From Octopus vulgaris (lineage: Eukaryota): DNA of 64,000 bases. Where the stretch lies: NCBI GenBank assembly GCA_951406725.2, contig OX597827.1:37696001-37760000 (forward strand), given 5' to 3'. Position numbers and translations under genes: made by a program. Below the pieces are notes generated by a model, which saw only the letters and a program-made list of their open reading frames with translations, did no database searches and was not told the DNA's origin. This document shows positions 14,691 to 58,636 of the stretch, one piece after another (the stretch's first letter is position 1; every line of letters starts with the position of its first letter).

Positions 14691-15974
14691 CAGAGAGAGA
14701 GAGTGTGTGTGTGTGTGGATACGCATATTCATATGTATACGTGTGTTTCTAATATATGAGGCAATTGAAACACTAGACGGATGCCAAAGACAACAATTAT
14801 TACTATTGTTCTTGTAATTGTTGTTATTCTTGTTGTCATTGAGGTTTTCTCTTGTTTCATAGCATAATAATCTACAAGTAATCGATACAGAGACATTATT
14901 TGGCCCTGAACACAATGCATCGTAATTTCTAGTATTGTGTTATTTTCAAGGCAATCGATTAGTCAAGGATAGAAACACAGTTCACATTTAACATCAGAGA
15001 AAATTCTAAACGTTTTAAAAGCTTTCATTTATTTCCTTTTCTTTATTTTTTTATTATCTTCCCACAGCCTTCTGCTTAAAACTTTTTTTCTATTTCTATT
15101 TTAGCAGTAGGAGTCATAAGGCCGGTTCGCCCGTTGTAGGTTCAAGGCCGGCAATTTTTAGAGGAGTCGATTACAACGATTCCGGTACTTGTCTAGTACT
15201 TTATTTTATCTACCCTGAAGGAATAAATTGCAGAGTTGCCCTCGAGGGCGGACGGGGGTTACTTCAGAACGTAAAGAGCCGAAAGAAATGCTGCTAAGCA
15301 TCTTGTCCAAGGTGCTAACGATTCTGCCATCTCACCATCTTTCTATTTAAAGCTTTTTTTTTTTTTTGTCAAATTCGAAATCGCATAAATGTATTTATGC
15401 GGTTTCAAATTCCGGTAGGCAACTCTTCTATTCAATGGTTTTATAGGAAATCTATAATTCCTTTGTCGGTTATATCCTGCTTTCACAGGATATTGAAAAT
15501 GTATAATTCTTTTGTCGGTTATATCCTGCTTTTACAAAGCAATTTGTTGCTCAGTTTTATAACATTTCTGATGTGATTTGGAGCATTCTAAAATGTTGTA
15601 AATATGCTCTGATTGGACAGGTCTATGACCAAGAGTATTTCAAGCCTCGTATTAACATATTTGCTGGCATTCTATAACAAGGACATCCTTCTTTTTCTAA
15701 TATAGTAGAATGTATGATCGAGAAATATTTAGCTACTGTCGAGCAGTTCAAGGGAGAGCGTAAAGGTTCCCTCTTTGGTGCAAATGTTTATTGGAATGGT
15801 AATGTTTTGGTTAAGATCCACAAGGAAATAGATTTATTTTCCTGCTTTTCTTTATGTTCATCAGACATAGTGCTCTATACATTACTGGTACTCTTCTCAC
15901 TTCCAAACCCTAATCATAACCTACTGTTTGCTTATTATCATATTTTATATTTTATTATTTATTGTTGTATCGGA

Positions 15975-16600
15975 CAAAATGCTTAGCGGTATTTTGTCTA
16001 CCGCTACGTTCTGAGTTCAAATTCCGCCGAGGTCGGCTTTGCCTTTCATCCTTTCGGGGTCGATAAATTAAGTACCATAACGCACTGGGGTCGATGTAAT
16101 CGACTTAATACCTATGTCTGTCCTTGTTTGTCCACTCTATGTTTAGCCCCTTGTGGCTAATAAAGAAATAGGTATTTCGTCTGCCGCTACGTTTTGAGTT
16201 CAAATTCCGCCGAGGTCCACTTTGCCTTTCATCCTTTCGGGGTCGATAAATTAAGTACCAGTTACGCACTGGGGTCGATCTAATCGACTTAATCCGTTTG
16301 TCTGTCCTTGTTTGTCCTCTCTGTGTTTAGCCCCTTGTGGGTAGTAAAGAAATAAGTATTTCGTCTGTCTTGACATTCGGATTTCAAATTCTGCCGAGGT
16401 CGGCTTTGCTTTCATCCTTTTAGTGTCTATAAATAAGTACCCTCGAAATTGCTGGCCGTGTGTCAAAATTTGAAGCCGTTATTATTTATTATTGGTACTA
16501 ATGGTGGTGGGCTGGCAGAAAAGTTACCACGCCGTACAAAATGCTTAGCTGCATTTCTTCCCACTTAATGTTCTGTATTCAAATGCTGCCAAGGTTGACT
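15975..16600 (+). mobile_element. Tandem SINE units (~184 bp); two carry the GCCCCTTGTGG-N-TA(A/G)TAAAGAAATA tail
   Basis: Units end at 16170 and 16354; further degenerate units follow. Confidence 0.85.
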
Positions 16601-16665
16601 TTGTCTTTCTTGTACCGTGATACTTTTTCAACTTCACTCCAGGCGAGAGAGTTAATAAAAACTGT

Positions 16666-18145: not shown

Positions 18146-18307
18146 AAAGCTGTTGTCAATAACGAGACAGAAGGGGATTCCAAAAACCTGGTTTTCGGCA
18201 TTCAGATACTATTAATAACAAGAAAACAATAATTATACCTATTTCGTGGGCGGGGGATGTTTTTTGAGGGTTTTTTTAAATTTCAAGAAAATATAAACTT
18301 CTAGAAT

Positions 18308-18472
18308 TGGTGCGGTTGTGCGGTAAGAAGTTCGCTTCTCAGTTACATGGTTCCGGATTCAATCCCACTACGTGGCACTTTGGGCAAGTGTCTTCTACTA
18401 TAGCTCTGGGCAGACTAAAGCTTTCTAAGTGGATCTAATTGTGAGAAAGGGTTAGGGTTAAGAATCATATCG

Positions 18473-19419: not shown

Positions 19420-19630
19420 TGTGAGCTGGCAGAATCGTTAGCACGCCGGGCATAATGCTTAACGACATTTTGTCCGTCTGTACGTTGAGTTCAAATTTCA
19501 CCGTGGTTGACTTCATTTTCATCCTTTCGGGGTCGATAAAGTAAGTACTAGTTGAGCACTTGAGTCGATTTAATCTACTTGACCCCGCCCTCAAAACTGC
19601 TGGCCTTGTGCCAAAATTTGAAACCAATAT
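19420..19630 (+). mobile_element. SINE
   Basis: gagctggcagaatcgttagcacgccggg..gagttcaaat..ggccttgtgccaaaatttgaaaccaat. Confidence 0.75.
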
Positions 19631-28454: not shown

Positions 28455-31175
<2,721 letters not shown>

Positions 31176-38180: not shown

Positions 38181-38242
38181 ATTGAAAATAAAATTAGCGT
38201 GCAGAAATGGAATAGTCCAGATGGATAATAAAAAATTAAATT

Positions 38243-38291
38243 AAAGAAAAGACTATTGTCTATAAAGTATACAATGTAGAGGAAAAAGGTG
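38243..38291 (+). pseudogene. ORF1 relic, family C, left part (split by the array)
   Basis: KEKTIVYKVYNVEEK matches B KRTIVYRVFANERK and A KRTITYRTWCVESK. Confidence 0.75.
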
Positions 38292-40086
38292 GCGTTTTTT
38301 TCGGCTCCCGTGTTTTTTTGAGTTAGTTAGTTGAGTTATTCTGGTGTGTTTATTCTGGTGTGTTTATTTCGAGTAAAGAGGTTGTGAGTTCGAGTTCGTT
38401 GGAGGACGTGGAAAAATTTTTTCTTGAAAATGCAAGAGCAGACTTACGCGCGAGCGGCAGGCAGAGGCCTGGTTGCCGGTGAACTGGAAATGGAGGAGGT
38501 GATGGTCGAACAGAAGACTTTACAGAAGTATTTCGACAGTTTAAAGAGGGAGGGTGACTGTGTGATAGTCACACCGTCCGAGGAGGAGGAAAGCAGTGCA
38601 GAGAAGCGTACTATAACGTACAGGACGTGGTGCGTGGAGTCGAAGAAGATTGAAGTAGCGGAAATGGAAGAAGTGGAAAGGTGTCTGAAGGAAATTGAGG
38701 GTGAACCAGCATTTTTTAAAAGAGGAAGGAAGTATGCCACGGTAGTGGTGTATTTTAAAACAGAAGAGGAGGCAAAAAAGAACGCTACAAGAATTTTGAA
38801 ATCGGATAAGTGGACTTTGCTACCAAGTTACTGCGGAAGGAGAGCAGTGAGGATGAGAATCAATAGAATCTCACCCGAATTTAATATGGAAAGGTTGCTG
38901 GCAGCAGTGCTGTTTAACTGCAAGGATGATGTGGAGGTACTGAAGGTGGAGAAGTCAGCAGAGGTGAAGTGGTGGGGATATACGGTGCAGGTTCTGGCAC
39001 ACATAACCGTGCGAGACCTGTACAACATCCCGGAGGAGTTGGTCTACCCTGACGAAACACGGCTCCGAGTTGTGGTAGAGGGAAGACCCCCAATTTGCTA
39101 TAACTGTAAATCGAGGGGCCACATGAAGGATGTGTGCCCGCGAGAAAAAACAAAAGCACCAGAGGTTGTGATAGAGGAGTGTAAAGAAGCGTGTGTGGAG
39201 GAAGCGAAAGCGGAGGAAACACAAATGGAGGAGCAGTTAAATGAGGAAGAACGAGCAAGTGCAGAAGAGGAAAAAACAGAAGACAAGAAGAGATCAAGGG
39301 TGGAATCACCACCGAAAGATATAAAAAAGAAAAAAATCAAAAGCAAGATAGCAGAAGAGAGAGAAGAGAAAAAAGAACAGGAAGTAAAAGAAAAGGTGAG
39401 AGAGCGACCAAGGACAGAGTTTGAACAAGAATGGGAGACAAGAGTGAACGAACAATTGGAATCGTGTAAATATGGAAGAAGGCCTACAGGAAAAAACTTG
39501 AAGGCAGTTGTGATGTATATCAAGAATACAGAAGTGGAAAAGAGACTTGTAGGTAAGAAAGGGTTGGTCAGGGTGAAGGTGAACCCAAAACTGTATGGTG
39601 AAGATGTAAAAGGCGTCATTATAGACAAGGAGACATACACAAAATTAAAAAAGATATATCATGCTATGCATATAATGCATTATGTACGGTATGATAAATT
39701 ACCAGATGTAATAGATCAAACGGACCTATTGGATTATATGACGGACGAGTGTCTAATGTAAAAGAATTAGAATTGTTACTTGTAAAATTATTTGATGTAA
39801 AGTTGTGTTTTTGAACAGGAATATATGTAATGTTAACATGTAAAATTGTAAAATTATTGTACTGTGAACTGGAATATATGTAACTGTAAAATTGTATTTT
39901 GAACTGGAATATATGAAATGTATAATTGTATTTTAAACGGAACTGCGAGTTGGGGGTTCGTAAGCCGTTCCATCTCATTACATATAAATTCATCTTTTAC
40001 TTCATATTTTATTTTTACTTTATGTACCCCATGTCCCGTCTTGTAATGTCCCCCTCTTCGTGGCCCCTTGTGGGTAATAAAAAAAT
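38292..40086 (+). mobile_element. ORF1-only (HAL1-like) non-autonomous retroelement, family A
   Basis: 5' GCGTTTTTTTCGGCTCCCGTGTTTTTTT, single ORF, 3' GCCCCTTGTGGGTAATAAAAAAAT; termini shared with family B. Confidence 0.85.
38430..39761 (+). CDS. Tx1/L1-type ORF1 (gag-like nucleic-acid-binding protein, CCHC knuckle), 443 aa from ATG
   Basis: Intact ORF; N-terminal TYA motif, putative RRM-like region, VVVEGRPPICYNCKSRGHMKDVC (CX2CX4HX4C), E/K-rich linker. Confidence 0.8.
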   Translation: MQEQTYARAAGRGLVAGELEMEEVMVEQKTLQKYFDSLKREGDCVIVTPSEEEESSAEKRTITYRTWCVESKKIEVAEMEEVERCLKEIEGEPAFFKRGRKYATVVVYFKTEEEAKKNATRILKSDKWTLLPSYCGRRAVRMRINRISPEFNMERLLAAVLFNCKDDVEVLKVEKSAEVKWWGYTVQVLAHITVRDLYNIPEELVYPDETRLRVVVEGRPPICYNCKSRGHMKDVCPREKTKAPEVVIEECKEACVEEAKAEETQMEEQLNEEERASAEEEKTEDKKRSRVESPPKDIKKKKIKSKIAEEREEKKEQEVKEKVRERPRTEFEQEWETRVNEQLESCKYGRRPTGKNLKAVVMYIKNTEVEKRLVGKKGLVRVKVNPKLYGEDVKGVIIDKETYTKLKKIYHAMHIMHYVRYDKLPDVIDQTDLLDYMTDECLM

Positions 40087-40261
40087 CGCGTTTTTTTCGG
40101 CTCGTGTTTTTTCGGCTTAAAATTCGGTAAAAAAGAACAAAAAGCGTTGTTGTTGTTGTGGAAATTCTGAACGGCGTTGACGCGGTTTCGCGTTTCGCTC
40201 GTTCAGCGCGTTACACTTTTTCTGTTTTGGCGGCCGTTTTCGGTCTGTCAGACAGAAGGAA

Positions 40262-41676
40262 ATGGACTATGAGTCTCTAACAGACTTGTCCACGACAGAT
40301 GAGGAACTGGAACAGGCAATTGCAATGAAGCTGATGGAAGAAAAGGCTGGAGTTTTCGAGTCTTTATCAGACTTGTCTACGTCTGAGGAGGAGCTAGAAA
40401 TGGCAGTGAGGAAAATGGATCAGAAGCTGGGTTATACCTATGCCGGTGTAACCAAGAAGGCGGAAGAGAAAGGGGTCGACATGGCCAAGTTGCCAAGTTA
40501 CCAGAAATACATGAAAAAGGAAAGCGGTGAGGTGGAACTATCACCGACACCCAGGAGAAAAGAATGGTATGATAAGAGGACCATTGTTTACAGGGTGTTC
40601 GCAAACGAAAGGAAGAGGGTAGAAGTTGTAACCATGGAATGGATAGAGGAAGCCCTGCGAAGAACTGAGGAGGAAATAAATTTTCTGACTCGAGGATCCA
40701 AGTACGGGACCGTAGTTGTGCACTTTAAAAGTGAATCTGCAGCGAGGAAGATGGCAGCGAAGGCGGTGAAGTCGGAAAAGGTAACACTGTTACCTACGTA
40801 TTTAAACAGGAGGATTACACGAATAAGGGTGGAGGGAGTGCCACCAAACGTGGAGGCAGAATGGATTGTGGCGGCTGTGATCAGCGGCCACGAGGACGAA
40901 GTGGATATTCTCCATGCCTCGGTTAAGTCCGAGGGCTGGAGAGGCGTAACAGTGGAGCTGAACGTACAGGCAGAGACCGAGGTACTGGTGGACCTGACGG
41001 AAAGCATCAGACTGGGAGAAGTGATCATGAGAGTGTGGGTGGAGGGCAGGGCTCCACGTTGTTACAAGTGTGGCCTGAGGGGTCACATAAGAGCCTTCTG
41101 CCCTCCCCCAGGGAAAGAAATGGATCCCGAACCAGAGAGAGAGAAGCAGAAACCAGAGGAGAAGGAAACAGAGGAAGAGAATACACAGAAATGGAAGGAA
41201 GCTGGAAGTAAGAGGAAGAGAAGAATCGTGGAAAAGAAAATAATATGGAACTCCAATCTACCCCAAAACCACCCACACCCTCTGAGTCCCACCCTATCCA
41301 TGCAGACATTGAACCCACCCGCTCCCCCCCAACAAGAAAACAAAAGAAAAAAAAGAATACACACACACAAGAGATTGAAATCGAACCCAGGCCGTACATT
41401 TGTACTATGACTGAACAGAAAGAAGTTAAAAGTCTAATGGAAGAGTATAAATGGTTTGATGTTGGAGAGACTAGGTATGCTGTGATTGAAAAGAAGAACA
41501 TAGGTGAGTTTATGGTGAGGTGTGAAAGGGAGAATTGGGAGGTGAAAGATATAAGAATGAGCGATGAATTCGTGGAAAATATGGATGAGTATTTCGGAGT
41601 AAGAATGGATATGGAATTTATTCGTATTGGCAAAGAACATTCAAGTGACTATGAAAAACAAAGGACAGGTAAGTGA
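40262..41676 (+). CDS. Family B ORF1, copy B1 (one frameshift)
   Basis: ORFs 40262-41410 and 41245-41676; VWVEGRAPRCYKCGLRGHIRAFC. Confidence 0.75.
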
Positions 41677-42360
41677 TGCTGACGGACGGGGCCGTTGGTA
41701 TCGCTTTCATTTTATCATTTTTTTCGTTTAACAATTCATGTTCATAAAGTTTAATTATAATGTTCAATGTCCCCATGTCTTTTGTTGTCCCCCTCTGTGT
41801 CGCCCCTTAGTGGGTAATAAAAAATCAGCTGTGATTGAAAAAAAGAACATAGGTGAGTTTATGGGGAGGTGTGAAAGGGAGAATTGGGAGGTGAAAGATA
41901 TAAGAATGAGCGATGAATTCGTGGAAAATATGGATGAGTATTTCGGAGTAAGAATGGATATGGAATTTATTCGTATTGGCAAAGAACATTCAAGTGACTA
42001 TGAAAAACAAAGGACAGGTAAGTGATGCTGACGGACGGGGCCGTTGGTATCGCTTTCATTTTATCATTTCTTCGTTTAACACTTCATGTTCTTATAGTTT
42101 AATTATAATGTTCTATGTCCCCATGTTTTGTTATGTCCACCACTCTTCGTAGCCCCTTAGTGGGTAATAAAGAAATACATGTTTTTTTCGGCTCCGTGTT
42201 TTTTTTTTCGGCTCCTGAAAATTCGGTAAAAAGGAACAAAAAGGGTTGTTGTTGTTGTGGAAATTCTGAACGGCGTTGACGCGGTTTCGCGTTTCGCTCG
42301 TTCGGCGCGTTACACTTTTTCTGTTTTGGCGGCCGTTCTCGGTCTGTCAGACAGAAGGAA

Positions 42361-43776
42361 ATGGACTATGAGTCTCTAACAGACTTGTCCACGACGGATG
42401 AGGAGCTGGAACAGGCAATTGCAATGAAGCTGATGGAAGAAAAGGCTGGAGTTTTCGAGTCTTTATCAGACTTGCCTACGTCTGAGAAGGAGCTAGAAAC
42501 GGCAGCAAGGGAATTGGAAGAGAAGCTGGGTTATACCTATGCCGGTGTAACCAAGAAGGCGGAAGAGAAAGGGGTCGACATGGCCAAGTTGCCAAGTTAC
42601 CAGAAATACATGAAAAAGGAAAGCGGTGAGGTGGAACTATCACCGACACCCAGGAGAAAAGAATGGTATGATAAGAGGACCATTGTTTACAGGGTGTGCG
42701 CAAACGAAAGGAAGAGGGTAGAAGTTGTATCCATGGAATGGATAGAGGAAGCCCTGCGAAGAACTGAGGAGGAAATAAATTTTCTGACTCGAGGATCCAA
42801 GTACGGGACCGTAGTTGTGCACTTTAAAAGTGAATCTGTAGCGAGGAAGATGGCAGCGAAGGCGGTGAAGTCGGAAAAGGTAACACTGTTACCTACGTAT
42901 TTAAACAGGAGGATTACACGAATAAGGGTGGAGGGAGTGCCACCAAACGTGGAGGCAGAATGGATTGTGGCGGCTGTGATCAGCGGCCACGAGGACGAAG
43001 TGGATATTCTCCATGCCTCGGTTAAGTCCGAGGGCTGGAGAGGCGTAACAGTGGAGCTGAACGTACAGGCAGAGACCGAGGTACTGGTGGACCTGACGGA
43101 AAGCATCAGACTGGGAGAAGTGATCATGAGAGTGTGGGTGGAGGGCAGGGCTCCACGTTGTTACAAGTGTGGCCTGAGGGGTCACATAAGAGCCTTCTGC
43201 CCTCCCCCAGGGAAAGAAATGGATCCCGAACCAGAGAGAGAGAAGCAGAAACCAGAGGAGAAGGAAACAGAGGAAGAGAATACACAGAAATGGAAGGAAG
43301 CTGGAAGTAAGAGGAAGAGAAGAATATGTGGAAAAAAAGAAAATAATATGGAACTCCAATCTACCCCAAAACCTCCCACACCCTCTGAGTCCCACCCTAT
43401 CCATGCAGACATTGAACCCACCCGCTCCCCCCAACAAGAAAACAAAAGAAAAAAAAGAATACACACACACAAGAGATTGAAATCGAACCCAGGCCGTACA
43501 TTTGTACTATGACTGAACAGAGGGAAGTTAAAAGTCTAATGGAAGAGTATAAACGGTATGATGTTGGAGAGACTAGGTATGCTGTGATTGAAAAAAGAAC
43601 ATAGGTGAGTTTATGGGGAGGTGTGAAAGGGAGAATTGGGAGGTGAAAGATATAAGAATGAGCGATGAATTCGTGGAAAATATGAATGAGTATTTCGGAG
43701 TAAGAATGGATATGGAATTTATTCGTATTGGCAAAGAACATTCAAGTGACTATGAAAAACAAAGGACAGGTAAGTG
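42361..43776 (+). CDS. Family B ORF1, copy B2 (homopolymer frameshifts)
   Basis: ORF 42361-43512 plus a disrupted C-terminal segment. Confidence 0.7.
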
Positions 43777-44111
43777 ATGCTGACGGACGGGGCCGTTGGT
43801 ATCGCTTTCATTTTATCATTTTTTTTCGTTTAACAATTCATGTTCATAAAGTTTAATTATAATGTTCTATGTCCCCATGTCTTTTGTTGTCCCCCTCTGT
43901 GTCGCCCCTTAGTGGGTAATAAAAAATCACATGTTTTTTTCGGCTCCGTGTTTTTTTTCGGCTCCTGAAAATTCGGTAAAAAAGAACAAAAAAGGTTGTT
44001 GTTGTTGTGGAAATTCTGAACGGCGTTGACGCGGTTTCGCGTTTCGCTCGTTCAGCGCGTTACACTTTTTCTGTTTTGGTGGCCGTTTTCGGTCTGTCAG
44101 ACAGAAAGGAA

Positions 44112-45530
44112 ATGGACTATGAGTCTCTAACAGACTTGTCCACGACAGATGAGGAACTGGAACAGGCAATTGCAATGAAGCTGATGGAAGAAAAGGCTGG
44201 AGTTTTCGAGTCTTTATCAGACCTGCCTACGTCTGAGAAGGAGCTAGAAATGGCAGCAAGGAATTTGGAAGAGAAGCTGGGTTATACCTATGCCGGTGTA
44301 ACCAAGAAGGCGGAAGAGAAAGGGGTCGACATGGCCAAGTTGCCAAGTTACCAGAAATACATGAAAAAGGAAAGCGGTGAGGTGGAACTATCACCGACAC
44401 CCAGGAGAAAAGAATGGTATGATAAGAGGACGATTATTTACAGGGTGTTCGCAAACGAAAGGAAGAGGGTAGAAGTTGTAACCATGGAATGGATAGAGGA
44501 AGCCCTGCGAAGAACTGAGGAGGAAATAAATTTTCTGACTCGAGGATCCAAGTACGGTACCGTAGTTGTGCATTTCAAAACTGAGTCTGCAGCGAGGAAG
44601 ATGGCGGCGAAGGCGGTGAAGTCAGAAAAGGTAAGCCTATTACCTACGTATTTAAACAGGAGGATTACACGAATAAGGGTGGAGGGAGTGCCACCAAACG
44701 TGGAGGCAGAATGGATTGTGGCGGCTGTGATCAGCGGCCACGAGGACGAAGTGGATATTCTCCATGCCTCGGTTAAGTCCGAGGGCTGGAGAGGCGTAAC
44801 AGTGGAGCTGAACGTACAGGCAGAGACCGAGGTACTGGTGGACCTGACGGAAAGCATCAGACTGGGAGACGTGATCATGAGAGTGTGGGTGGAGGGCAGG
44901 GCTCCACGTTGTTACAAGTGTGGCCTGAGGGGTCACATAAGAGCCTTCTGCCCTCCCCCAGGGAAAGAAATGGATTCCGAACCAGAGAGAGAGAAGCAGA
45001 AACCAGAGGAGAAGGAAACAGAGGAAGAGAATACACAGAAATGGAAGGAAGCTGGAAGTAAGAGGAAGAGAAGAATTCGTGGTAAAGAAAATAATATGGA
45101 ACTCCAATCTACCCCAAAACCACCCACACCCTCTGAGTCCCACCCTATCCATGCAGACATTGAACCCACCCGCTCCCCCCCCAACAAGAAAACAAAAGAA
45201 AAAAAAGAATACACACACACACAAGAGATTGAAATCGAACCCAGGCCGTACATTTGTACTATGACTGAACAGAGGGAAGTTAAAAGTCTAATGGAAGAGT
45301 ATAAACGGTATGATGTTGGAGAGACTAGGTATGCTGTGATTGAAAAAAAGAACATAGGTGAGTTTATGGGGAGGTGTGAAAGGGAGAATTGGGAGGTGAA
45401 AGATATAAGAATGAGCGATGAATTCGTGGAAAATATGAATGAGTATTTCGGAGTAAGAATGGATATGGAATTTATTCGTATTGGCAAAGAACATTCAAGT
45501 GACTATGAAAAACAAAGGACAGGTAAGTGA
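44112..45530 (+). CDS. Family B ORF1, copy B3, uninterrupted (472 aa from ATG)
   Basis: Open from MDYESL to KQRTGK*; CCHC knuckle; homologous to the family A ORF. Confidence 0.85.
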   Translation: MDYESLTDLSTTDEELEQAIAMKLMEEKAGVFESLSDLPTSEKELEMAARNLEEKLGYTYAGVTKKAEEKGVDMAKLPSYQKYMKKESGEVELSPTPRRKEWYDKRTIIYRVFANERKRVEVVTMEWIEEALRRTEEEINFLTRGSKYGTVVVHFKTESAARKMAAKAVKSEKVSLLPTYLNRRITRIRVEGVPPNVEAEWIVAAVISGHEDEVDILHASVKSEGWRGVTVELNVQAETEVLVDLTESIRLGDVIMRVWVEGRAPRCYKCGLRGHIRAFCPPPGKEMDSEPEREKQKPEEKETEEENTQKWKEAGSKRKRRIRGKENNMELQSTPKPPTPSESHPIHADIEPTRSPPNKKTKEKKEYTHTQEIEIEPRPYICTMTEQREVKSLMEEYKRYDVGETRYAVIEKKNIGEFMGRCERENWEVKDIRMSDEFVENMNEYFGVRMDMEFIRIGKEHSSDYEKQRTGK

Positions 45531-46154
45531 TGCTGACGGACGGGGCCGTTGGTATCGCTTTCATTTTATCATTTTTTTCGTTTAACACTTCATGTTCATA
45601 TAGTTTAATTATAATGTTCTATGTCCCCATGTTTTGTTATGTCCGCCGTTCTTCGTAGCCCCTTAGTGGGTAATAAAGAAATAGAAATAGAAAGATATAA
45701 GAATGAGCGATGAATTCGTGGAAAATATGAATGAGTATTTCGGAGTAAGAATGGATATGGAATTTATTCGTATTGGCAAAGAACATTCAAGTGACTATGA
45801 AAAACAAAGGACAGGTAAGTGATGCTGACGGACGGGGCCGTTGGTATCGCTTTCATTTTATCATTTTTTCGTTTAACAATTCATGTTCATAAAGTTTAAT
45901 TATAATGTTCTATGTCCCCATGTCTTTTGTTGTCCCCCTCTGTGTCGCCCCTTAGTGGGTAATAAAAAATCACATGTTTTTTTCGGCTCGTGTTTTTTTT
46001 TTCGGCTCCTGAAAATTCGGTAAAAAAGAACAAAAAAGGTTGTTGTTGTTGTGGAAATTCTGAACGGCGTTGACGCGGTTTCGCGTTTCGCTCGTTCAGC
46101 GCGTTACACTTTTTCTGTTTTGGTGGCCGTTTTCGGTCTGTCAGACAGAGGGAA

Positions 46155-47570
46155 ATGGATTATGAGTCTCTAACAGACTTGTCCACGACAGATGAGGAAC
46201 TGGAACAGGCAATTGCAATGAAGCTGATGGAAGAAAAGGCTGGAGTTTTCGAGTCTTTATCAGACTTGCCTACGTCTGAGAAGGGGCTAGAAATGGCAGC
46301 AAGGAAATTGGAAGACAAGCTGAGTTATACCTATGCCGGTGTAACCAAGAAGGCGGAAGAGAAAGGGGTCGACATGGCCAAGTTGCCAAGTTACCAGAAA
46401 TACATGGAAAAGGAAAGCGGTGAGGTGGAACTATCACCGACACCCAGGAGAAAAGAATGGTATGATAAGAGGACCATTGTTTACAGGGTGTGCGCAAACG
46501 AAAGGAAGAGGGTAGAAGTTGTATCCATGGAATGGATAGAGGAAGCCCTGCGAAGAACTGAGGAGGAAATAAATTTTCTGACTCGAGGATCCAAGTACGG
46601 GACCGTAGTTGTGCACTTTAAAAGTGAATCTGCAGCGAGGAAGATGGCAGCGAAGGCGGTGAAGTCGGAAAAGGTAACACTGTTACCTACGTATTTAAAC
46701 AGGAGGATTACACGAATAAGGGTGGAGGGAGTGCCACCAAACGTGGAGGCAGAATGGATTGTGGCGGCTGTGATCAGCGGCCACGAGGACGAAGTGGATA
46801 TTCTCCATGCCTCGGTTAAGTCCGAGGGCTGGAGAGGCGTAACAGTGGAGCTGAACGTACAGGCAGAGACCGAGGTACTGGTGGACCTGACGGAAAGCAT
46901 CAGACTGGGAGAAGTGATCATGAGAGTGTGGGTGGAGGGCAGGGCTCCACGTTGTTACAAGTGTGGCCTGAGGGGTCACATAAGAGCCTTCTGCCCTCCC
47001 CCAGGGAAAGAAATGGATCCCGAACCAGAGAGAGAAAGCAGAAACCAGAGGAGAAGGAAACAGAGGAAGAGAATACACAGAAATGGAAGGAAGCTGGAAG
47101 TAAGAGGAAGAGAAGAATATGTGGAAAAAAGAAAATAATATGGAACTCCAATCTATCCCAAAACCTCCCACACCCTCTGAGTCCCACCCTATCCATGCAG
47201 ACATTGAACCCACCCGCTCCCCCCCAACAAGAAAACAAAAGAAAAAAAGAATACACACACACAAGAGATTGAAATCGAACCCAGGCCGTACATTTGTACT
47301 ATGACTGAACAGAGGGAAGTTAAAAGTCTAATGGAAGAGTATAAATGGTATGATGTTGGAGAGACTAGGTATGCTGTGATTGAAAAGAAGAACATAGGTG
47401 AGTTTATGGGGAGGTGTGAAAGGGAGAATTGGGAGGTGAAAGATATAAGAATGAGCGATGAATTCGTGGAAAATATGAATGAGTATTTCGGAGTAAGAAT
47501 GGATATGGAATTTATTCGTATTGGCAAAGAACATTCAAGTGACTATGAAAAACAAAGGACAGGTAAGTGA
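46155..47570 (+). CDS. Family B ORF1, copy B4 (frameshifts)
   Basis: ORFs 46155-47138, 47119-47304 and 47301-47570. Confidence 0.7.
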
Positions 47571-47901
47571 TGCTGACGGACGGGGCCGTTGGTATCGCTT
47601 TCATTTTATCATTTTTTTCGTTTAACAATTCATGTTCATAAAGTTTAATTATAATGTTCTATGTCCCCATGTCTTTTGTTGTCCCCCTCTGTGTCGCCCC
47701 TTAGTGGGTAATAAAAAATCACATGTTTTTTTCGGCTCGTGTTTTTTTTTCGGCTCCTGAAAATTCGGTAAAAAAGAACAAAAAGGTTGTTGTTGTTGTG
47801 GAAATTCTGAACGGCGTTGACGCGGTTTCGCGTTTCGCTCGTTCAGCGCGTTACACTTTTTCTGTTTTGGCGGCCGTTTTCGGTCTGTCAGACAGAAGGA
47901 A

Positions 47902-49317
47902 ATGGACTATGAGTCTCTAACAGACTTGTCCACGACGGATGAGGAACTGGAACAGGCAATTGCAGTGAAGCTGATGGAGAAAAGGCTGGAGTTTTCGAGT
48001 CTTTATCAGACTTGCCTACGTCTGAGAAGGAGCTAGAAATGGCAGCAAGGAAATTGGAAGACAAGCTGGGTTATACCTATGCCGGTGTAACCAAGAAGGC
48101 GGAAGAGAAAGGGGTCGACATGGCCAAGTTGCCAAGTTACCAGAAATACATGAAAAAGGAAAGCGGTGAGGTGGAACTATCACCGACACCCAGGAGAAAA
48201 GAATGGTATGATAAGAGGACCATTGTTTACAGGGTGTTCGCAAACGAAAGGAAGAGGGTAGAAGTTGTATCCATGGAATGGATAGAGGAAGCCCTGCGAA
48301 GAACTGAGGAGGAAATAAATTTTCTGACTCGAGGATCCAAGTACGGGACCGTAGTTGTGCACTTTAAAAGTGAATCTGCAGCGAGGAAGATGGCAGCGAA
48401 GGCGGTGAAGTCGGAAAAGGTAACACTGTTACCTACGTATTTAAACAGGAGGATTACACGAATAAGGGTGGAGGGAGTGCCACCAAACGTGGAGGCAGAA
48501 TGGATTGTGGCGGCTGTGATCAGCGGCCACGAGGACGAAGTGGATATTCTCCATGCCTCGGTTAAGTCCGAGGGCTGGAGAGGCGTAACAGTGGAGCTGA
48601 ACGTACAGGCAGAGACCGAGGTACTGGTGGACCTGACGGAAAGCATCAGACTGGGAGAAGTGATCATGAGAGTGTGGGTGGAGGGCAGGGCTCCACGTTG
48701 TTACAAGTGTGGCCTGAGGGGTCACATAAGAGCCTTCTGCCCTCCCCAGGGAAAGAAATGGATCCCGAACCAGAGAGAGAGAAGCAGAAACCAGAGGAGA
48801 AGGAAACAGAGGAAGAGAATACACAGAAATGGAAGGAAGCTGGAAGTAAGAGGAAGAGAAGAATATGTGGAAAAAAAGAAAATAATATGGAACTCCAATC
48901 TACCCCAAAACCTCCCACACCCTCTGAGTCCCACCCTATCCATGCAGACATTGAACCCACCCGCTCCCCCCAACAAGAAAACAAAAGAAAAAAAAGAATA
49001 CACACACACAAGAGATTGAAATCGAACCCAGGCCGTACATTTGTACTATGACTGAACAGAGGGAAGTTAAAAGTCTAATGGAAGAGTATAAATGGTATGA
49101 TGTTGGAGAGACTAGGTATGCTGTGATTGAAAAGAAGAACATAGGTGAGTTTATGGGGAGGTGTGAAAGGGAGAATTGGGAGGTGAAAGATATAAGAATG
49201 AGCGATGAATTCGTGGAAAATATGAATGAGTATTTCGGAGTAAGAATGGATATGGAATTTATTCGTATTGGCAAAGAACATTCAAGTGACTATGAAAAAC
49301 AAAGGACAGGTAAGTGA
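47902..49317 (+). CDS. Family B ORF1, copy B5 (frameshifts)
   Basis: ORFs 48012-49019, 48674-49051 and 49048-49317. Confidence 0.7.
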
Positions 49318-49646
49318 TGCTGACGGACGGGGCCGTTGGTATCGCTTTCATTTTATCATTTTTTTCGTTTAACAATTCATGTTCATAAATTTAATTATAA
49401 TGTTCTATGTCCCCATGTCTTTTGTTGTCCCCCTCTGTGTCGCCCCTTAGTGGGTAATAAAAAATCACATGTTTTTTCGGCTCGTGTTTTTTTTCGGCTC
49501 CTGAAAATTCGGTAAAAAAGAACAAAAAGCGTTGTTGTTGTTGTGGAAATTCTGAACGGCGTTGACGCGGTTTCGCGTTTCGCTCGTTCAGCGCGTTACA
49601 CTTTTTCTGTTTTGGCGGCCGTTTTCGGTCTGTCAGACAGAAGGAA

Positions 49647-51063
49647 ATGGACTATGAGTCTCTAACAGACTTGTCCACGACAGATGAGGAACTGGAACAG
49701 GCAATTGCAATGAAGCTGATGGAAGAAAAGGCTGGAGTTTTCGAGTCTTTATCAGACTTGCCTACGTCTGAGAAGGAGCTAGAAATGGCAGCAAGGAAAT
49801 TGGAAGACAAGCTGAGTTATACCTATGCCGGTGTAACCAAGAAGGCGGAAGAGAAAGGGGTCGACATGGCCAAGTTGCCAAGTTACCAGAAATACATGGA
49901 AAAGGAAAGCGGTGAGGTGGAACTATCACCGACACCCAGGAGAAAAGAATGGTATGATAAGAGGACCATTGTTTACAGGGTGTTCGCAAACGAAAGGAAG
50001 AGGGTAGAAGTTGTAACCATGGAATGGATAGAGGAAGCCCTGCGAAGAACTGAGGAGGAAATAAATTTTCTGACTCGAGGATCCAAGTACGGGACCGTAG
50101 TTGTGCACTTTAAAAGTGAATCTGCAGCGAGGAAGATGGCAGCGAAGGCGGTGAAGTCGGAAAAGGTAACACTGTTACCTACGTATTTAAACAGGAGGAT
50201 TACACGAATAAGGGTGGAGGGAGTGCCACCAAACGTGGAGGCAGAATGGATTGTGGCGGCTGTGATCAGCGGCCACGAGGACGAAGTGGATATTCTCCAT
50301 GCCTCGGTTAAGTCCGAGGGCTGGAGAGGCGTAACAGTGGAGCTGAACGTACAGGCAGAGACCGAGGTACTGGTGGACCTGACGGAAAGCATCAGACTGG
50401 GAGAAGTGATCATGAGAGTGTGGGTGGAGGGCAGGGCTCCACGTTGTTACAAGTGTGGCCTGAGGGGTCACATAAGAGCCTTCTGCCCTCCCCCAGGGAA
50501 AGAAATGGATCCCGAACCAGAGAGAGAGAAGCAGAAACCAGAGGAGAAGGAAACAGAGGAAGAGAATACACAGAAATGGAAGGAAGCTGGAAGTAAGAGG
50601 AAGAGAAGAATATGTGGAAAAAAAGAAAATAATATGGAACTCCAATCTACCCCAAAACCTCCCACACCCTCTGAGTCCCACCCTATCCATGCAGACATTG
50701 AACCCACCCGCTCCCCCCAACAAGAAAACAAAAGAAAAAAAGAATACACACACACAAGAGATTGAAATCGAACCCAGGCCGTACATTTGTACTATGACTG
50801 AACAGAGGGAAGTTAAAAGTCTAATGGAAGAGTATAAACGGTATGATGTTGGAGAGACTAGGTATGCTGTGATTGAAAAGAAGAACATAGGTGAGTTTAT
50901 GGGGAGGTGTGAAAGGGAGAATTGGGAGGTGAAAGATATAAGAATGAGCGATGAATTCGTGGAAAATATGAATGAGTATTTCGGAGTAAGAATGGATATG
51001 GAATTTATTCGTATTGGCAAAGAACATTCAAGTGACTATGAAAAACAAAGGACAGGTAAGTGA
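49647..51063 (+). CDS. Family B ORF1, copy B6 (frameshift)
   Basis: ORFs 49647-50765 and 50614-51063. Confidence 0.7.
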
Positions 51064-51400
51064 TGCTGACGGACGGGGCCGTTGGTATCGCTTTCATTTT
51101 ATCATTTTTTCGTTTAACAATTCATGTTCATAAAGTTTAATTATAATGTTCTATGTCCCCATGTTTTGTTATGTCCGCCATTCTTCGTAGCCCCTTAGTG
51201 GGTAATAAAGAAATCACAGCGTTTTTTTCGGCTCCGTGTTTTTTTTTTCGGCTCCTGAAAATTCGGTAAAAAAGAACAAAAAAGGTTGTTGTTGTTGTGG
51301 AAATTCTGAACGGCGTTGACGCGGTTTCGCGTTTCGCTCGTTCAGCGCGTTACACTTTTTCTGTTTTGGCGGCCGTTTTCGGTCTGTCAGACAGAAGGAA

Positions 51401-52818
51401 ATGGACTATGAGTCTCTAACAGACTTGTCCACGACAGATGAGGAACTGGAACAGGCAATTGCAATGAAGCTGATGGAAGAAAAGGCTGGAGTTTTCGAGT
51501 CTTTATCAGACTTGCCTATGTCTGAGAAGGAGCTAGAAATGGCAGCAAGGAAATTGGAAGACAAGCTGAGTTATACCTATGCCGGTGTAACCAAGAAGGC
51601 GGAAGAGAAAGGGGTCGACATGGCCAAGTTGCCAAGTTACCAGAAATACATGAAAAAGGAAAGCGGTGAGGTGGAACTATCACCGACACCCAGGAGAAAA
51701 GAATGGTATGATAAGAGGACCATTGTTTACAGGGTGTGCGCAAACGAAAGGAAGAGGGTAGAAGTTGTAACCATGGAATGGATAGAGGAAGCCCTGCGAA
51801 GAACTGAGGAGGAAATAAATTTTCTGACTCGAGGATCCAAGTACGGGACCGTAGTTGTGCACTTTAAAAGTGAATCTGCAGCGAGGAAGATGGCAGCGAA
51901 GGCGGTGAAGTCGGAAAAGGTAACACTGTTACCTACGTATTTAAACAGGAGGATTACACGAATAAGGGTGGAGGGAGTGCCACCAAACGTGGAGGCAGAA
52001 TGGATTGTGGCGGCTGTGATCAGCGGCCACGAGGACGAAGTGGATATTCTCCATGCCTCGGTTAAGTCCGAGGGCTGGAGAGGCGTAACAGTGGAGCTGA
52101 ACGTACAGGCAGAGACCGAGGTACTGGTGGACCTGACGGAAAGCATCAGACTGGGAGAAGTGATCATGAGAGTGTGGGTGGAGGGCAGGGCTCCACGTTG
52201 TTACAAGTGTGGCCTGAGGGGTCACATAAGAGCCTTCTGCCCTCCCCCAGGGAAAGAAATGGATCCCGAACCAGAGAGAGAGAAGCAGAAACCAGAGGAG
52301 AAGGAAACAGAGGAAGAGAATACACAGAAATGGAAGGAAGCTGGAAGTAAGAGGAAGAGAAGAATATGTGGAAAAAAAGAAAATAATATGGAACTCCAAT
52401 CTACCCCAAAACCTCCCACACCCTCTGAGTCCCACCCTATCCATGCAGACATTGAACCCACCCGCTCCCCCCAACAAGAAAACAAAAAAAAAAAAAGAAT
52501 ACACACACACAAGAGATTGAAATCGAACCCAGGCCGTACATTTGTACTATGACTGAACAGAGGGAAGTTAAAAGTCTAATGGAAGAGTATAAACGGTATG
52601 ATGTTGGAGAGACTAGGTATGCTGTGATTGAAAAAAAGAACATAGGTGAGTTTATGGGGAGGTGTGAAAGGGAGAATTGGGAGGTGAAAGATATAAGAAT
52701 GAGCGATGAATTCGTGGAAAATATGAATGAGTATTTCGGAGTAAGAATGGATATGGAATTTATTCGTATTGGCAAAGAACATTCAAGTGACTATGAAAAA
52801 CAAAGGACAGGTAAGTGA
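51401..52818 (+). CDS. Family B ORF1, copy B7 (frameshift)
   Basis: ORFs 51401-52552 and 52549-52818. Confidence 0.7.
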
Positions 52819-53148
52819 TGCTGACGGACGGGGCCGTTGGTATCGCTTTCATTTTATCATTTTTTCGTTTAACAATTCATGTTCATAAAGTTTAATTATA
52901 ATGTTCTATGTCCCCATGTCTTTTGTATGTCCCCTCTGTGTCGCCCCTTAGTGGGTAATAAAAAATCACATGTTTTTTTCGGCTCCGTGTTTTTTTTTCG
53001 GCTCCTGAAAATTCGGTAAAAAAGAACAAAAAGGTTGTTGTTGTTGTGGAAATTCTGAACGGCGTTGACGCGGTTTCGCGTTTCGCTCGTTCAGCGCGTT
53101 ACACTTTTTCTGTTTTGGCGGCCGTTTTCGGTCTGTCAGACAGAGGAA

Positions 53149-54567
53149 ATGGACTATGAGTCTCTAACAGACTTGTCCACGACAGATGAGGAACTGGAAC
53201 AGGCAATTGCAATGAAGCTGATGGAAGAAAAGGCTGGAGTTTTCGAGTCTTTATCAGACTTGCCTACGTCTGAGAAGGAGCTAGAAATGGCAGCAAGGGA
53301 AATTGGAAGACAAGCTGAGTTATACCTATGCCGGTGTAACCAAGAAGGCGGAAGAGAAAGGGGTCGACATGGCCAAGTTGCCAAGTTACCAGAAATACAT
53401 GAAAAAGGAAAGCGGTGAGGTGGAACTATCACCGACACCCAGGAGAAAAGAATGGTATGATAAGAGGACCATTGTTTACAGGGTGTTCGCAAACGAAAGG
53501 AAGAGGGTAGAAGTTGTAACCATGGAATGGATAGAGGAAGCCCTGCGAAGAACTGAGGAGGAAATAAATTTTCTGACTCGAGGATCCAAGTACGGGACCG
53601 TAGTTGTGCACTTTAAAAGTGAATCTGCAGCGAGGAAGATGGCAGCGAAGGCGGTGAAGTCGGAAAAGGTAACACTGTTACCTACGTATTTAAACAGGAG
53701 GATTACACGAATAAGGGTGGAGGGAGTGCCACCAAACGTGGAGGCAGAATGGATTGTGGCGGCTGTGATCAGCGGCCACGAGGACGAAGTGGATATTCTC
53801 CATGCCTCGGTTAAGTCCGAGGGCTGGAGAGGCGTAACAGTGGAGCTGAACGTACAGGCAGAGACCGAGGTACTGGTGGACCTGACGGAAAGCATCAGAC
53901 TGGGAGAAGTGATCATGAGTGTGTGGGTGGAGGGCAGGGCTCCACGTTGTTACAAGTGTGGCCTGAGGGGTCACATAAGAGCCTTCTGCCCTCCCCCAGG
54001 GAAAGAAATGGATCCCGAACCAGAGAGAGAGAAGCAGAAACCAGAGGAGAAGGAAACAGAGGAAGAGAATACACAGAAATGGAAGGAAGCTGGAAGTAAG
54101 AGGAAGAGAAGAATATGTGGAAAAAAAGAAAATAATATGGAACTCCAATCTATCCCAAAACCTCCCACACCCTCTGAGTCCCACCCTATCCATGCAGACA
54201 TTGAACCCACCCGCTCCCCCCCAACAAGAAAACAAAAGAAAAAAAGAATACACACACACAAGAGATTGAAATCGAACCCAGGCCGTACATTTGTACTATG
54301 ACTGAACAGAGGGAAGTTAAAAGTCTAATGGAAGAGTATAAACGGTATGATGTTGGAGAGACTAGGTATGCTGTGATTGAAAAGAAGAACATAGGTGAGT
54401 TTATGGGGAGGTGTGAAAGGGAGAATTGGGAGGTGAAAGATATAAGAATGAGCGATGAATTCGTGGAAAATATGAATGAGTATTTCGGAGTAAGAATGGA
54501 TATGGAATTTATTCGTATTGGCAAAGAACATTCAAGTGACTATGAAAAACAAAGGACAGGTAAGTGA
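53149..54567 (+). CDS. Family B ORF1, copy B8 (frameshifts)
   Basis: ORFs 53303-54301 and 54298-54567. Confidence 0.7.
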
Positions 54568-54899
54568 TGCTGACGGACGGGGCCGTTGGTATCGCTTTCA
54601 TTTTATCATTTTTTCGTTTAACAATTCATGTTCATAAAGTTTAATTATAATGTTCTATGTCCCCATGTCTTTTGTTATGTCCGCCCTCTTCGTAGCCCCT
54701 TAGTGGGTAATAAAAAATCACATGTTTTTTTCGGCTCGTGTTTTTTTTTTCGCTCTGAAAATTCGGTAAAAAAGAACAAAAAGGTTGTTGTTGTTGTGGA
54801 AATTCTGAACGGCGTTGACGCGGTTTCGCGTTTCGCTCGTTCAGCGCGTTACACTTTTTCTGTTTTGGCGGCCGTTTTCGGTCTGTCAGACAGAAGGAA

Positions 54900-56314
54900 A
54901 TGGACTATGAGTCTCTAACAGACTTGTCCACGACAGATGAGGAACTGGAACAGGCAATTGCAATGAAGCTGATGGAAGAAAAGGCTGGAGTTTTCGAGTC
55001 TTTATCAGACTTGCCTACGTCTGAGAAGGAGCTAGAAATGGCAGCAAGGAAATTGGAAGAAAGCTGAGTTATACCTATGCCGGTGTAACCAAGAAGGCGG
55101 AAGAGAAAGGGGTCGACATGGCCAAGTTGCCAAGTTACCAGAAATACATGAAAAAGGAAAGCGGTGAGGTGGAACTATCACCGACACCCAGGAGAAAAGA
55201 ATGGTATGATAAGAGGACCATTGTTTACAGGGTGTTCGCAAACGAAAGGAAGAGGGTAGAAGTTGTAACCATGGAATGGATAGAGGAAGCCCTGCGAAGA
55301 ACTGAGGAGGAAATAAATTTTCTGACTCGAGGATCCAAGTACGGGACCGTAGTTGTGCACTTTAAAAGTGAATCTGCAGCGAGGAAGATGGCAGCGAAGG
55401 CGGTGAAGTCGGAAAAGGTAACACTGTTACCTACGTATTTAAACAGGAGGATTACACGAATAAGGGTGGAGGGAGTGCCACCAAACGTGGAGGCAGAATG
55501 GATTGTGGCGGCTGTGATCAGCGGCCACGAGGACGAAGTGGATATTCTCCATGCCTCGGTTAAGTCCGAGGGCTGGAGAGGCGTAACAGTGGAGCTGAAC
55601 GTACAGGCAGAGACCGAGGTACTGGTGGACCTGACGGAAAGCATCAGACTGGGAGAAGTGATCATGAGAGTGTGGGTGGAGGGCAGGGCTCCACGTTGTT
55701 ACAAGTGTGGCCTGAGGGGTCACATAAGAGCCTTCTGCCCTCCCCCAGGGAAAGAAATGGATCCCGAACCAGAGAGAGAGAAGCAGAAACCAGAGGAGAA
55801 GGAAACAGAGGAAGAGAATACACAGAAATGGAAGGAAGCTGGAAGTAAGAGGAAGAGAAGAATATGTGGAAAAAAAGAAAATAATATGGAACTCCAATCT
55901 ATCCCAAAACCTCCCACACCCTCTGAGTCCCACCCTATCCATGCAGACATTGAACCCACCCGCTCCCCCCAACAAGAAAACAAAAAAAAAAAGAATACAC
56001 ACACACAAGAGATTGAAATCGAACCCAGGCCGTACATTTGTACTATGACTGAACAGAGGGAAGTTAAAAGTCTAATGGAAGAGTATAAATGGTATGATGT
56101 TGGAGAGACTAGGTATGCTGTGATTGAAAAGAAGAACATAGGTGAGTTTATGGGGAGGTGTGAAAGGGAGAATTGGGAGGTGAAAGATATAAGAATGAGC
56201 GATGAATTCGTGGAAAATATGAATGAGTATTTCGGAGTAAGAATGGATATGGAATTTATTCGTATTGGCAAAGAACATTCAAGTGACTATGAAAAACAAA
56301 GGACAGGTAAGTGA
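54900..56314 (+). CDS. Family B ORF1, copy B9 (early frameshift, remainder continuous)
   Basis: ORF 55118-56314. Confidence 0.7.
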
Positions 56315-56629
56315 TGCTGACGGACGGGGCCGTTGGTATCGCTTTCATTTTATCATTTTTTCGTTTAACAATTCATGTTCATAAAGTTTAATTATAATGT
56401 TCTATGTCCCCATGTTTTGTTGTGTCCCCTCTGTGTCGCCCCTTAGTGGGTAATAAAAAATCACTTGTTTTTTTTTTGCGCTCTGTAAAATTCGGTAAAA
56501 AAGAACAAAAAGCGTTGTTGTTGTTGTGGAAATTCTGAACGGCGTTGACGCGGTTTCGCGTTTCGCTCGTTCAGCGCGTTACACTTTTTCTGTTTTGGCG
56601 GCCGTTTTCGGTCTGTCAGACAGAAGGAA

Positions 56630-58047
56630 ATGGACTATGAGTCTTTAACAGACTTGTCCACGACAGATGAGGAACTGGAACAGGCAATTGCAATGAAGCT
56701 GATGGAAGAAAAGGCTGGAGTTTTCGAGTCTTTATCAGACTTGTCTACATCTGAGGAGGAGCTAGAAATAGCAGTGAGGAAAATGGATCAGAAGCTGGGT
56801 TATACCTATGCCGGTGTAACCAAGAAGGCGGAAGAGAAAGGGGTCGACATGGCCAAGTTGCCAAGTTACCAGAAATACATGAAAAAGGAAAGCGGTGAGG
56901 TGGAACTATCACCGACACCCAGGAGAAAAGAATGGTATGATAAGAGGACCATTGTTTACAGGGTGTTCGCAAACGAAAGGAAGAGGGTAGAAGTTGTAAC
57001 CATGGAATGGATAGAGGAAGCCCTGCGAAGAACTGAGGAGGAAATAAATTTTCTGACTCGAGGATCCAAGTACGGGACCGTAGTTGTGCACTTTAAAAGT
57101 GAATCTGCAGCGAGGAAGATGGCAGCGAAGGCGGTGAAGTCGGAAAAGGTAACACTGTTACCTACGTATTTAAACAGGAGGATTACACGAATAAGGGTGG
57201 AGGGAGTGCCACCAAACGTGGAGGCAGAATGGATTGTGGCGGCTGTGATCAGCGGCCACGAGGACGAAGTGGATATTCTCCATGCCTCGGTTAAGTCCGA
57301 GGGCTGGAGAGGCGTAACAGTGGAGCTGAACGTACAGGCAGAGACCGAGGTACTGGTGGACCTGACGGAAAGCATCAGACTGGGAGAAGTGATCATGAGA
57401 GTGTGGGTGGAGGGCAGGGCTCCACGTTGTTACAAGTGTGGCCTGAGGGGTCACATAAGAGCCTTCTGCCCTCCCCCAGGGAAAGAAATGGATCCCGAAC
57501 CAGAGAGAGAGAAGCAGAAACCAGAGGAGAAGGAAACAGAGGAAGAGAATACACAGAAATGGAAGGAAGCTGGAAGTAAGAGGAAGAGAAGAATATGTGG
57601 AAAAAAAGAAAATAATATGGAACTCCAATCTACCCCAAAACCTCCCACACCCTCTGAGTCCCACCCTATCCATGCAGACATTGAACCCACCCGCCCCCCC
57701 CAACAAGAAAACAAAAGAAAAAAAAGAATACACACACACAAGAGATTGAAATCGAACCCAGGCCGTACATTTGTACTATGACTGAACAGAGGGAAGTTAA
57801 AAGTCTAATGGAAGAGTATAAACGGTATGATGTTGGAGAGACTAGGTATGCTGTGATTGAAAAGAAGAACATAGGTGAGTTTATGGGGAGGTGTGAAAGG
57901 GAGAATTGGGAGGTGAAAGATATAAGAATGAGCGATGAATTCGTGGAAAATATGAATGAGTATTTCGGAGTAAGAATGGATATGGAATTTATTCGTATTG
58001 GCAAAGAACATTCAAGTGACTATGAAAAACAAAGGACAGGTAAGTGA
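56630..58047 (+). CDS. Family B ORF1, copy B10 (frameshift)
   Basis: ORFs 56630-57781 and 57778-58047. Confidence 0.7.
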
Positions 58048-58199
58048 TGCTGACGGACGGGGCCGTTGGTATCGCTTTCATTTTATCATTTTTTTCGTTT
58101 AACAATTCATGTTCATAAAGTTTAATTATAATGTTCTATGTCCCCATGTTTTGTTATGTCCGCCATTCTTCGTAGCCCCTTAGTGGGTAATAAAGAAAT

Positions 58200-58500
58200 C
58201 ACATGGAGGAAAGCACCTTCGAAAAGTGTCTTGGTACGACTATGAAAGGTATCTAATCAGAGGCGGTAAATTCGCCACAATAGAAGCAAGGTTCGAGTCA
58301 ACGGAGCGTGCAAGGGAGTACTCGACTCGAACTTTCAAAGTGGAAATATTTTATTTTTACCTTTATATCTGGGACGTAGGACGTCCCGGAAAAAAATAAA
58401 AAATACCCCCCCCCCCCCCGAAGTAGAGGTAGGCCGGATTGTAGCCACAATTCTATACAAGAGGGAGGACAAGATACAATTGATCGAAATTGCAAGAGAC
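58200..58500 (+). pseudogene. ORF1 relic, family C, right part
   Basis: HMEESTFEKCL / YLIRGGKFATIEARFESTERAREYSTRTF / ILFLPLYLGRRTSR / PEVEVGRIVATILYKREDKIQLIEI aligns collinearly with A and B (RGRKYATVVVYFKTEEEAKK, LLPSYCGRR, PNVEAEWIVAAVISGHEDEVDIL). Confidence 0.85.
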
Positions 58501-58636
58501 GGGCTTACGTATTGTTATCACTAGCGATATCAAGATATAACTTTGTATTTTGTATTTTATGTGTAGATGTATATATATAGATATACATGTAATATGTACA
58601 CATATATATACACATATATACATGCACTAGCACTAT

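Follow-up and report, generated by a model that had tools for sequence, protein, structure and literature searches.

A 3' tail shared by a SINE and two ORF1-only element families in Octopus vulgaris, and a proposed origin of their stacks inside related elements

Why do a SINE and two families of ORF1-only elements end in the same 3' sequence, and why do both stand in head-to-tail stacks? The question is raised by a 64,000-nt stretch of the Octopus vulgaris genome (contig OX597827.1; here referred to as the window), which is rich in microsatellites and contains about eleven copies of one SINE body. As a general rule, SINEs share their 3' tails with the LINE that mobilises them. An initial annotation of the window proposed that one unseen LINE drives both kinds of element and that the tail itself may determine stacking. 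The elements concerned lie at two loci. Near 16 kb, SINE units are arranged head to tail, as first described (TRF period, 184; 2.5 copies).

15971..15987, forward strand: 17-nt SINE head remnant with GCTTAGC at its end, in the simplest reading the 5' part of an older host SINE
15988..16170, forward strand: SINE unit 1, with a B box and without an A box (boxes by eye); shared tail at about 16118-16169
16171..16354, forward strand: SINE unit 2, 91.8% identical to unit 1; shared tail at about 16302-16353
16355..16480, forward strand: unit 3, a more decayed SINE body with an internal deletion and a different tail; putative insertion host
16501..16609, forward strand: further SINE copy, 20 nt past unit 3, with its head intact and its tail missing

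The second locus is an array, 19.9 kb long, in which copies of the ORF1-only families A and B split the decayed ORF1 of a third relative, family C.

38240..38291, forward strand: left piece of the C ORF1 (profile positions 39-53)
38292..40086, forward strand: family A, ORF1-only, with the shared tail; ORF at 38430-39761 (443 aa), no RT or endonuclease
40087..58199, forward strand: family B array of 10 full and two 5'-truncated copies, head to tail, each ending in the shared tail
41826-42176 and 45683-45970, forward strand: the truncated B copies, with 5' ends at positions 1406 and 1471 of a full copy
58200..58521, forward strand: frameshifted right piece of the C ORF1, with CACATG at its start (profile positions 58-156)

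In the window, 15 copies of the tail motif were found, always on the forward strand; they are carried by two SINE units (16146 and 16330), by A (40063), and by the 12 B copies. The last 52 nt of the SINE units matched those of A, B1, and B10 in 41 to 43 of 54 to 56 columns (75 to 81% identity), compared with 30 to 34 matches in 60 to 62 columns for the 52 nt upstream. Local alignment scores for the tail (38 to 44) were reached by none of 1,000 dinucleotide shuffles in each of six comparisons; the shuffle maxima were 25 to 34, and the best of 3,643 background windows scored 31. The likeness greatly exceeds chance and is confined to about 50 nt, which bears out the initial annotation in equating the SINE tail with that of the ORF1-only elements. 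The SINE and A endings read as it had quoted them. The tail that it gave for B was present in all 12 copies, but in two variants (7/12 and 5/12). Instead of a long poly(A), the tail has a short stretch rich in A, or a repeat of the AGAAAT type, at its end. No common stable RNA fold was found, with one of six tails folding better than its shuffles (z, -2.95) and the structures disagreeing. Searches of paper full texts with tail and body motifs returned two unrelated papers, and the tail pattern had one match in bacterial and archaeal genomes, within an ordinary 421-aa bacterial gene, which we judged to be due to chance. In the literature covered, which did not extend to Repbase or Dfam, no description of the shared tail or of octopus ORF1-only elements was found.

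In families A (1.8 kb) and B (full copies, 1,738 to 1,755 nt), neither an RT nor an endonuclease was matched in the stretch from ORF1 to the 3' end, and the 3' UTRs measure about 325 and 150 nt, respectively. At the DNA level A and B are alike over the first 28 nt or so and have little else in common besides the tail; their ORF1 proteins are 30% identical. The 472-aa B ORF1 is intact in one of the 10 full copies (44115-45530), and the frameshifts in the other nine, which fall at homopolymer or dinucleotide runs, may be assembly errors. Synonymous changes were in excess among the B copies, both in the core (9 of 18 changes, P = 0.010) and in the whole ORF (21 of 58, P = 0.005), which suggests that the source elements were under selection for ORF1. 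Every synonymous change in the core was confined to a single copy. Mosaic patterns were seen across 36 informative sites. The differences shared between B copies fall in three short blocks (alignment columns 300-360, 1260-1275, and 1713-1764 of 40087-58199), and the independent assortment of these blocks suggests template switching or conversion between source elements.

The A ORF1 consists of two RRM-like domains followed by one CCHC knuckle. The predicted structure of its core (pLDDT, 94.9) matched tandem-RRM proteins; zf-CCHC, which fell under the Pfam cutoff in A and B, was matched by 21 of 40 aligned homologues. For the A core protein, the sole homologue returned was a UniRef entry from Octopus bimaculoides (56% identical), and the ORF1 profile gathered 870 clusters at E values up to 0.001. 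A PDB sequence search gave zinc-knuckle matches as the only ones of note. From the predicted fold, the A and B ORF1 proteins would appear to serve in RNA packaging. No RT or endonuclease domain was detected in 24 homologues, picked for length from the 150 listed of the 870 clusters. No ORF1-ORF2 fusion was detected among proteins of 1,508 to 4,305 aa, and four ORF1 matches were found among those of 100 to 1,507 aa. Because ORF1 and ORF2 lie in separate frames, such fusion and domain searches are weak tests for an RT partner. ORF1 fragments of this family were also embedded in larger predicted products (P0035, P0055, and P0096), together with WD40 domains in P0035 and LDL-receptor domains in P0055, and these are probably chimeric gene predictions.

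Family C, which the initial annotation had overlooked, was recognized from the two flanks of the array, which supplied the top 4 of 2,090 peptides outside the array (A and B masked) in a comparison with the ORF1 profile. Their profile positions are collinear (39-53 on the left; 58-74, 75-111, and 97-156 on the right; E values of 0.031, 0.29, 3.5e-08, and 2.1e-11, respectively). The left piece is weak when taken alone (E = 0.031) and adjoins the array at the correct profile position; protein P0133 is among the best matches of both flanks, with about two residues unaccounted for at the break. The CACATG of the right flank consists of C's own codons, and 10 of the 12 internal junctions of the array open with 1 to 6 of its bases. 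In order, the prefixes shared with the right flank measure 1, 2, 0, 6, 0, 6, 6, 6, 4, 6, 6, and 3 bases, so that an identical CACATG spacer recurs at six junctions; its final G may be the element's first base. One of the two zero-prefix junctions reads ACATG, and the other is a tail repeat that overlaps the first bases of a truncated copy. The CA ahead of the first truncated B copy is not element sequence, and the 5' end of A has no target duplication.

Several separate insertion events are implied by the junctions, which are of at least five distinct types, and the 5' truncation of 2 of the 12 B copies and the 10 junctions that begin with target bases are features of target-primed reverse transcription. 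The array is, with good likelihood, the product of repeated insertion at one position with a variable target duplication, and unequal exchange may have added further copies. Stepwise local duplication of B was not supported, since adjacent full copies are not more alike (31.3 substitutions, versus 30.9 over all pairs) and the nearest relative was the neighbor for none of the 10.

At the SINE locus, units 2 and 3 begin at the same internal register, past the A box and at the point that follows the GCTTAGC head motif preceding unit 1. The tail-bearing units are incomplete SINEs in which the A box is absent, and the body of unit 3 is 79 to 80% identical to theirs. The simplest reading of this arrangement is that an older SINE with the other tail was interrupted in its head by the tail-bearing units. 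The 17-nt remnant would then be assigned to the host SINE, although it could instead belong to unit 1. Insertion into the head followed by re-insertion is slightly favored for this locus, and unit 2 could be a product of unequal exchange. A-box- and B-box-like motifs were found by eye in the SINE copy at 19420. ARAGORN predicted 0 genes. Over 15900-16700 and 19380-19720, Rfam gave no tRNA match and, at E values up to 10, no snRNA match that would point to a U1- or U2-derived head. A hairpin at the SINE head junction is weak (z, -0.2 to -2.4 in four copies).

Copies with other tails had been described as solitary, which held for those at 4872, 19420, and 32143, whose nearest SINE copy is at least 1,001 nt away. 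It fails as a rule, because unit 3, a copy that the initial annotation had missed, carries another tail in the same tandem and a further copy follows 20 nt on. The proposed comparison of tandem frequency by tail type was run in the window only, where one of one tail-bearing SINE loci and one of eight others were tandem (Fisher's exact test, P = 0.22), a comparison that has no power with a single tail-bearing locus. The tail was unreadable in four of the other SINE copies.

We propose, at a probability of roughly 0.6, that the SINE and families A and B are three passengers of one two-ORF LINE lineage, stacked by the re-cutting of a regenerated site. The SINE subfamily (putatively tRNA-type) and the two families would carry the 3' recognition end of this lineage and would be copied by the ORF2 of the partner via target-primed reverse transcription, with A and B supplying their own putative RNA-packaging ORF1, as HAL1 and HeT-A do. 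Stacks would arise as the enzyme re-cut the same spot. In the order of events that we envisage, A would first have inserted in the ORF1 of C, just ahead of CACATG, and later copies would have joined their 3' ends at the same position, each leaving 0 to 6 duplicated target bases. At 16 kb, a tail-bearing SINE would have entered the head of an older SINE; homology between the incoming cDNA and its target could have primed the second strand at the matching register, giving seamless, head-less 184-nt units. Second-strand priming by annealing to the upstream target has been proposed for R1 and R2 (PMC2718515). The tail, then, probably specifies the enzyme to be borrowed, and the stacks are probably built by repeated cutting at the regenerated site.

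This division of labor departs from the initial suggestion that the tail determines stacking, which is weakened by two findings: at neither locus did the founding insertion follow a tail, each lying inside a relative instead, and what stays constant at the array junctions is sequence from the target, on the downstream side of the tail. The stacking model rests on two loci, whose targets (CACATGGAGG and RGTATTTCG) have no obvious sequence in common, so a single sequence-specific nuclease fails to explain both.

The SINE, A, and B very probably use a common partner lineage. To that extent, the claim that one LINE drives both kinds of element stands, as far as the sharply bounded tail points to common borrowed machinery. 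The single LINE is unproven, however, since neither the window nor the proteins and the bacterial and archaeal genomes searched yielded an RT-encoding element with this tail. Given tails that are 75 to 81% alike and ORF1 proteins that are 30% identical, a group of related partners fits as well as one. A Tx1/L1-type partner is marginally favored by the single-knuckle type I ORF1, by weak leads from the Atlas (look-alikes among ZCCHC3-type RBD and DUF4283 clusters, with scores of 0.88 to 0.90 and TM of 0.30 or less; leads only), by the fact that coleoid LINEs include L1-Tx1 (PMC8967140), and by the behavior of Tx1 families. An ORF1 with RRM and CCHC (type I) is consistent with Tx1 (PMC5203782) and occurs in several clades (PMC4120745), so it is not diagnostic.

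The alternative that survives best changes the clade alone and overlaps our explanation in all other respects: the partner might be a stringent-tail LINE of the Nimb/I, L2, or CR1 clade, a possibility that we regard as real and clearly the less probable one. Such a partner would suit the conserved tail of 50 nt and the short repeat at its end. Bivalve SINEs have partners among CR1, CR1-Zenon, L2, and Nimb, with shared tails of 35 to 61 bp and 72 to 95% identity (PMC11481361), and type I ORF1 proteins are found in Nimb/I, L2, and CR1 as well (PMC4120745). The Atlas look-alikes cited above, leads though they are, speak against it.

A second alternative gives the tail itself the role of a landing pad, its A-rich end being nicked or annealing the incoming RNA and so attracting the next copy. 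All 15 tails in the window do sit in stacks, all 12 later insertions in the array lie directly after a tail, and at one junction a tail repeat overlaps the first bases of a truncated copy. Neither founding insertion came after a tail, however, and the final tail bases mostly track the copy's own B variant (AAAG in 4/5 copies of one, AAAA in 7/7 of the other), which indicates that they derive from the RNA and not from the preceding copy. The association of tail with tandem arrangement was not significant in the window (P = 0.22, with one tail-bearing SINE locus). We consider this reading unlikely as a replacement for site re-use, with which it is compatible, as both could act together.

Less probable still is that each locus received one or two insertions and was then shaped by unequal exchange and gene conversion. 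At the SINE locus, one tail-bearing unit would have inserted, and a crossover between the bodies of units 1 and 3 would have yielded unit 2, so that units 2 and 3 would automatically begin at one register. The six identical array spacers and the mosaicism over the 36 informative sites in B also suit exchange, and Martelossi et al. proposed unequal recombination of one target site duplication (TSD) with another for bivalve SINE arrays (PMC11481361). Exchange cannot, however, yield two distinct 5' truncations, varied spacer lengths, or the A-to-B junction; adjacent B copies are not more alike, and unit 1 diverges from unit 2 by about 8%. Exchange may have acted on the SINE pair and in a portion of the array.

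The Dong/R4-like elements of the window (28.5-31.1 kb and 59.4-62.6 kb), although the sole RT-encoding elements found there, were rejected as the partner, a role that is highly improbable given that their 3' ends scored 14 to 18 against the tail (reached by 63 to 657 of 1,000 shuffles) and that they lie in TAA-type repeats with no ORF1 relative found within them. Since these elements lack the tail, the partner is unseen.

HeT-A, too, is arranged in head-to-tail arrays. ORF1-only LINEs have been reported from the L1 (HAL1), Jockey (HeT-A), and CR1 (Ag-Sponge) clades (PMC5786205). By architecture, an ORF1-type RNA-binding protein (as predicted) without ORF2, and by their LINE-like ends, A and B are of this kind. 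They differ in having a type I ORF1 with one knuckle, in that families about 30% alike share a tail with a SINE, and in the interstitial position of the array, nested in a relative.

Sequential insertion has precedents as a source of tandem copies (PMC4494074, PMC2718515, 10.1101/158386). In crocodilians, SINEU elements insert preferentially in another transposon and form tandem copies by sequential insertion, separated by the TSD, and transposons are the target of some Tx1 families (PMC4494074). The octopus stacks resemble SINEU/Tx1-Mar in having tandem copies separated by target bases inside another transposon. SINEU, however, has heads from U1/U2, ends in poly(A), and lies in a Mariner element with a TSD of 16 bp (PMC4494074), whereas the octopus elements have a putatively tRNA-like head, a conserved 50-nt tail, spacers of 0 to 6 nt, and hosts that are their own relatives. 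Drosophila R1 arrays and double-insertion dimers likewise consist of head-to-tail non-LTR copies with target sequence between them, a fixed 3' junction, and a variable 5' junction, distinct 5' truncations marking separate events, and they are thought to extend at the 5' TSD (PMC2718515, 10.1101/158386). Unlike the octopus passengers, R1 is autonomous and targets 28S rDNA with a fixed 14-bp TSD (PMC2718515, 10.1101/158386). The tRNA-derived conserved-domain SINEs of mollusks (octopus OK/OR1/OR2, Meta, and Deu/Nin) similarly combine a head and body with exchangeable tails, and tandem SINE structures are known in bivalves; in the parts of this literature consulted, no shared tail, ORF1-only relative, or insertion into a SINE's own head was found described (PMC4824008, PMC11481361, PMC8967140).

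Each ingredient therefore has precedent, and the combination, with nesting in kin at both loci, is the interesting part. A broader view, which we offer tentatively, is that a SINE and numerous ORF1-only families in octopus genomes form a guild, all of them passengers of a single LINE lineage, whose members share a stringent tail, land preferentially in kin, and re-cut the regenerated junction. If so, HeT-A-like stacks of 20 kb would exist away from telomeres, and a SINE targeting its own head would lose its promoter at each round. About 40% of the transposable-element content of octopuses consists of SINEs (PMC8967140), and no partner of an octopus SINE was found named in the portions of the literature consulted; the 50-nt tail provides a direct handle on one such partner. 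A diverse octopus ORF1-only group sharing a SINE tail would add a case to those above and allow a test of the benefit of ORF1 in cis. The array, with several insertions at one position and a range of duplication lengths, is a natural readout of second-strand cleavage and bears on how transposon satellites start.

Other repeats of the window, listed here, include the two RT-encoding elements, whose assignment to the Dong/R4 clade we presume from their layout and TAA-repeat sites.

16652-16871 and 17900-18159: inverted repeat arms (72 to 92% complementary) flanking the next feature
16917-17752: degenerate TTAGGG-type array, 835 nt, with higher-order periods of 126 and 234
18305-18450: different SINE, with a TG repeat directly after it
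28462-31190 (reverse strand) and 59430-62612 (forward strand): two Dong/R4-like RT elements, 95 to 97% identical, within TAA-type repeats
36834-37133 and 63775-63999: fragments of a Mariner transposase (HTH) and of a PIF1-like helicase, respectively (Pfam)

A Pfam scan of 91 of 138 selected stop-to-stop frames and three Dong frames matched only Mos1-type HTH, PIF1, and Dong RT, with no other RT or endonuclease remnants. Among the 150 of 205 Rfam matches listed for the window, all were microsatellite noise under the gathering scores. At 59430-60035, a partial Dong-like copy is followed by a TAA run and then by a second copy, whose starting position matches that of the truncated copy at 31060. 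The other SINE tail (5020-5075, 16435-16490, and 19580-19635), which scored at chance level against the shared tail, has the 10-nt word AAATTTGAAA in common with the Dong-like 3' end (62530-62612). The corresponding alignment scores were reached by 10 to 40 of 1,000 shuffles for three copies and by 158 to 740 for a fourth, and the word may offer a weak lead to a Dong-like partner for that tail. The SINE at 18305-18450 we take to be similar to CORE-type octopus SINEs. The stretch at 16652-18159 resembles a MITE- or foldback-like element with telomere-like repeats and lies near the point where the SINE copy at 16501 breaks off. Finally, a microsatellite-bearing stretch (37600-38290) and a strong hairpin (58615-58672; z, -4.5) ending in CTAG-T bracket the split C fragment and the array. 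We assume that these two features resemble the ends of a nonautonomous Helitron, and family C may be a fragment captured within a Helitron-like element.
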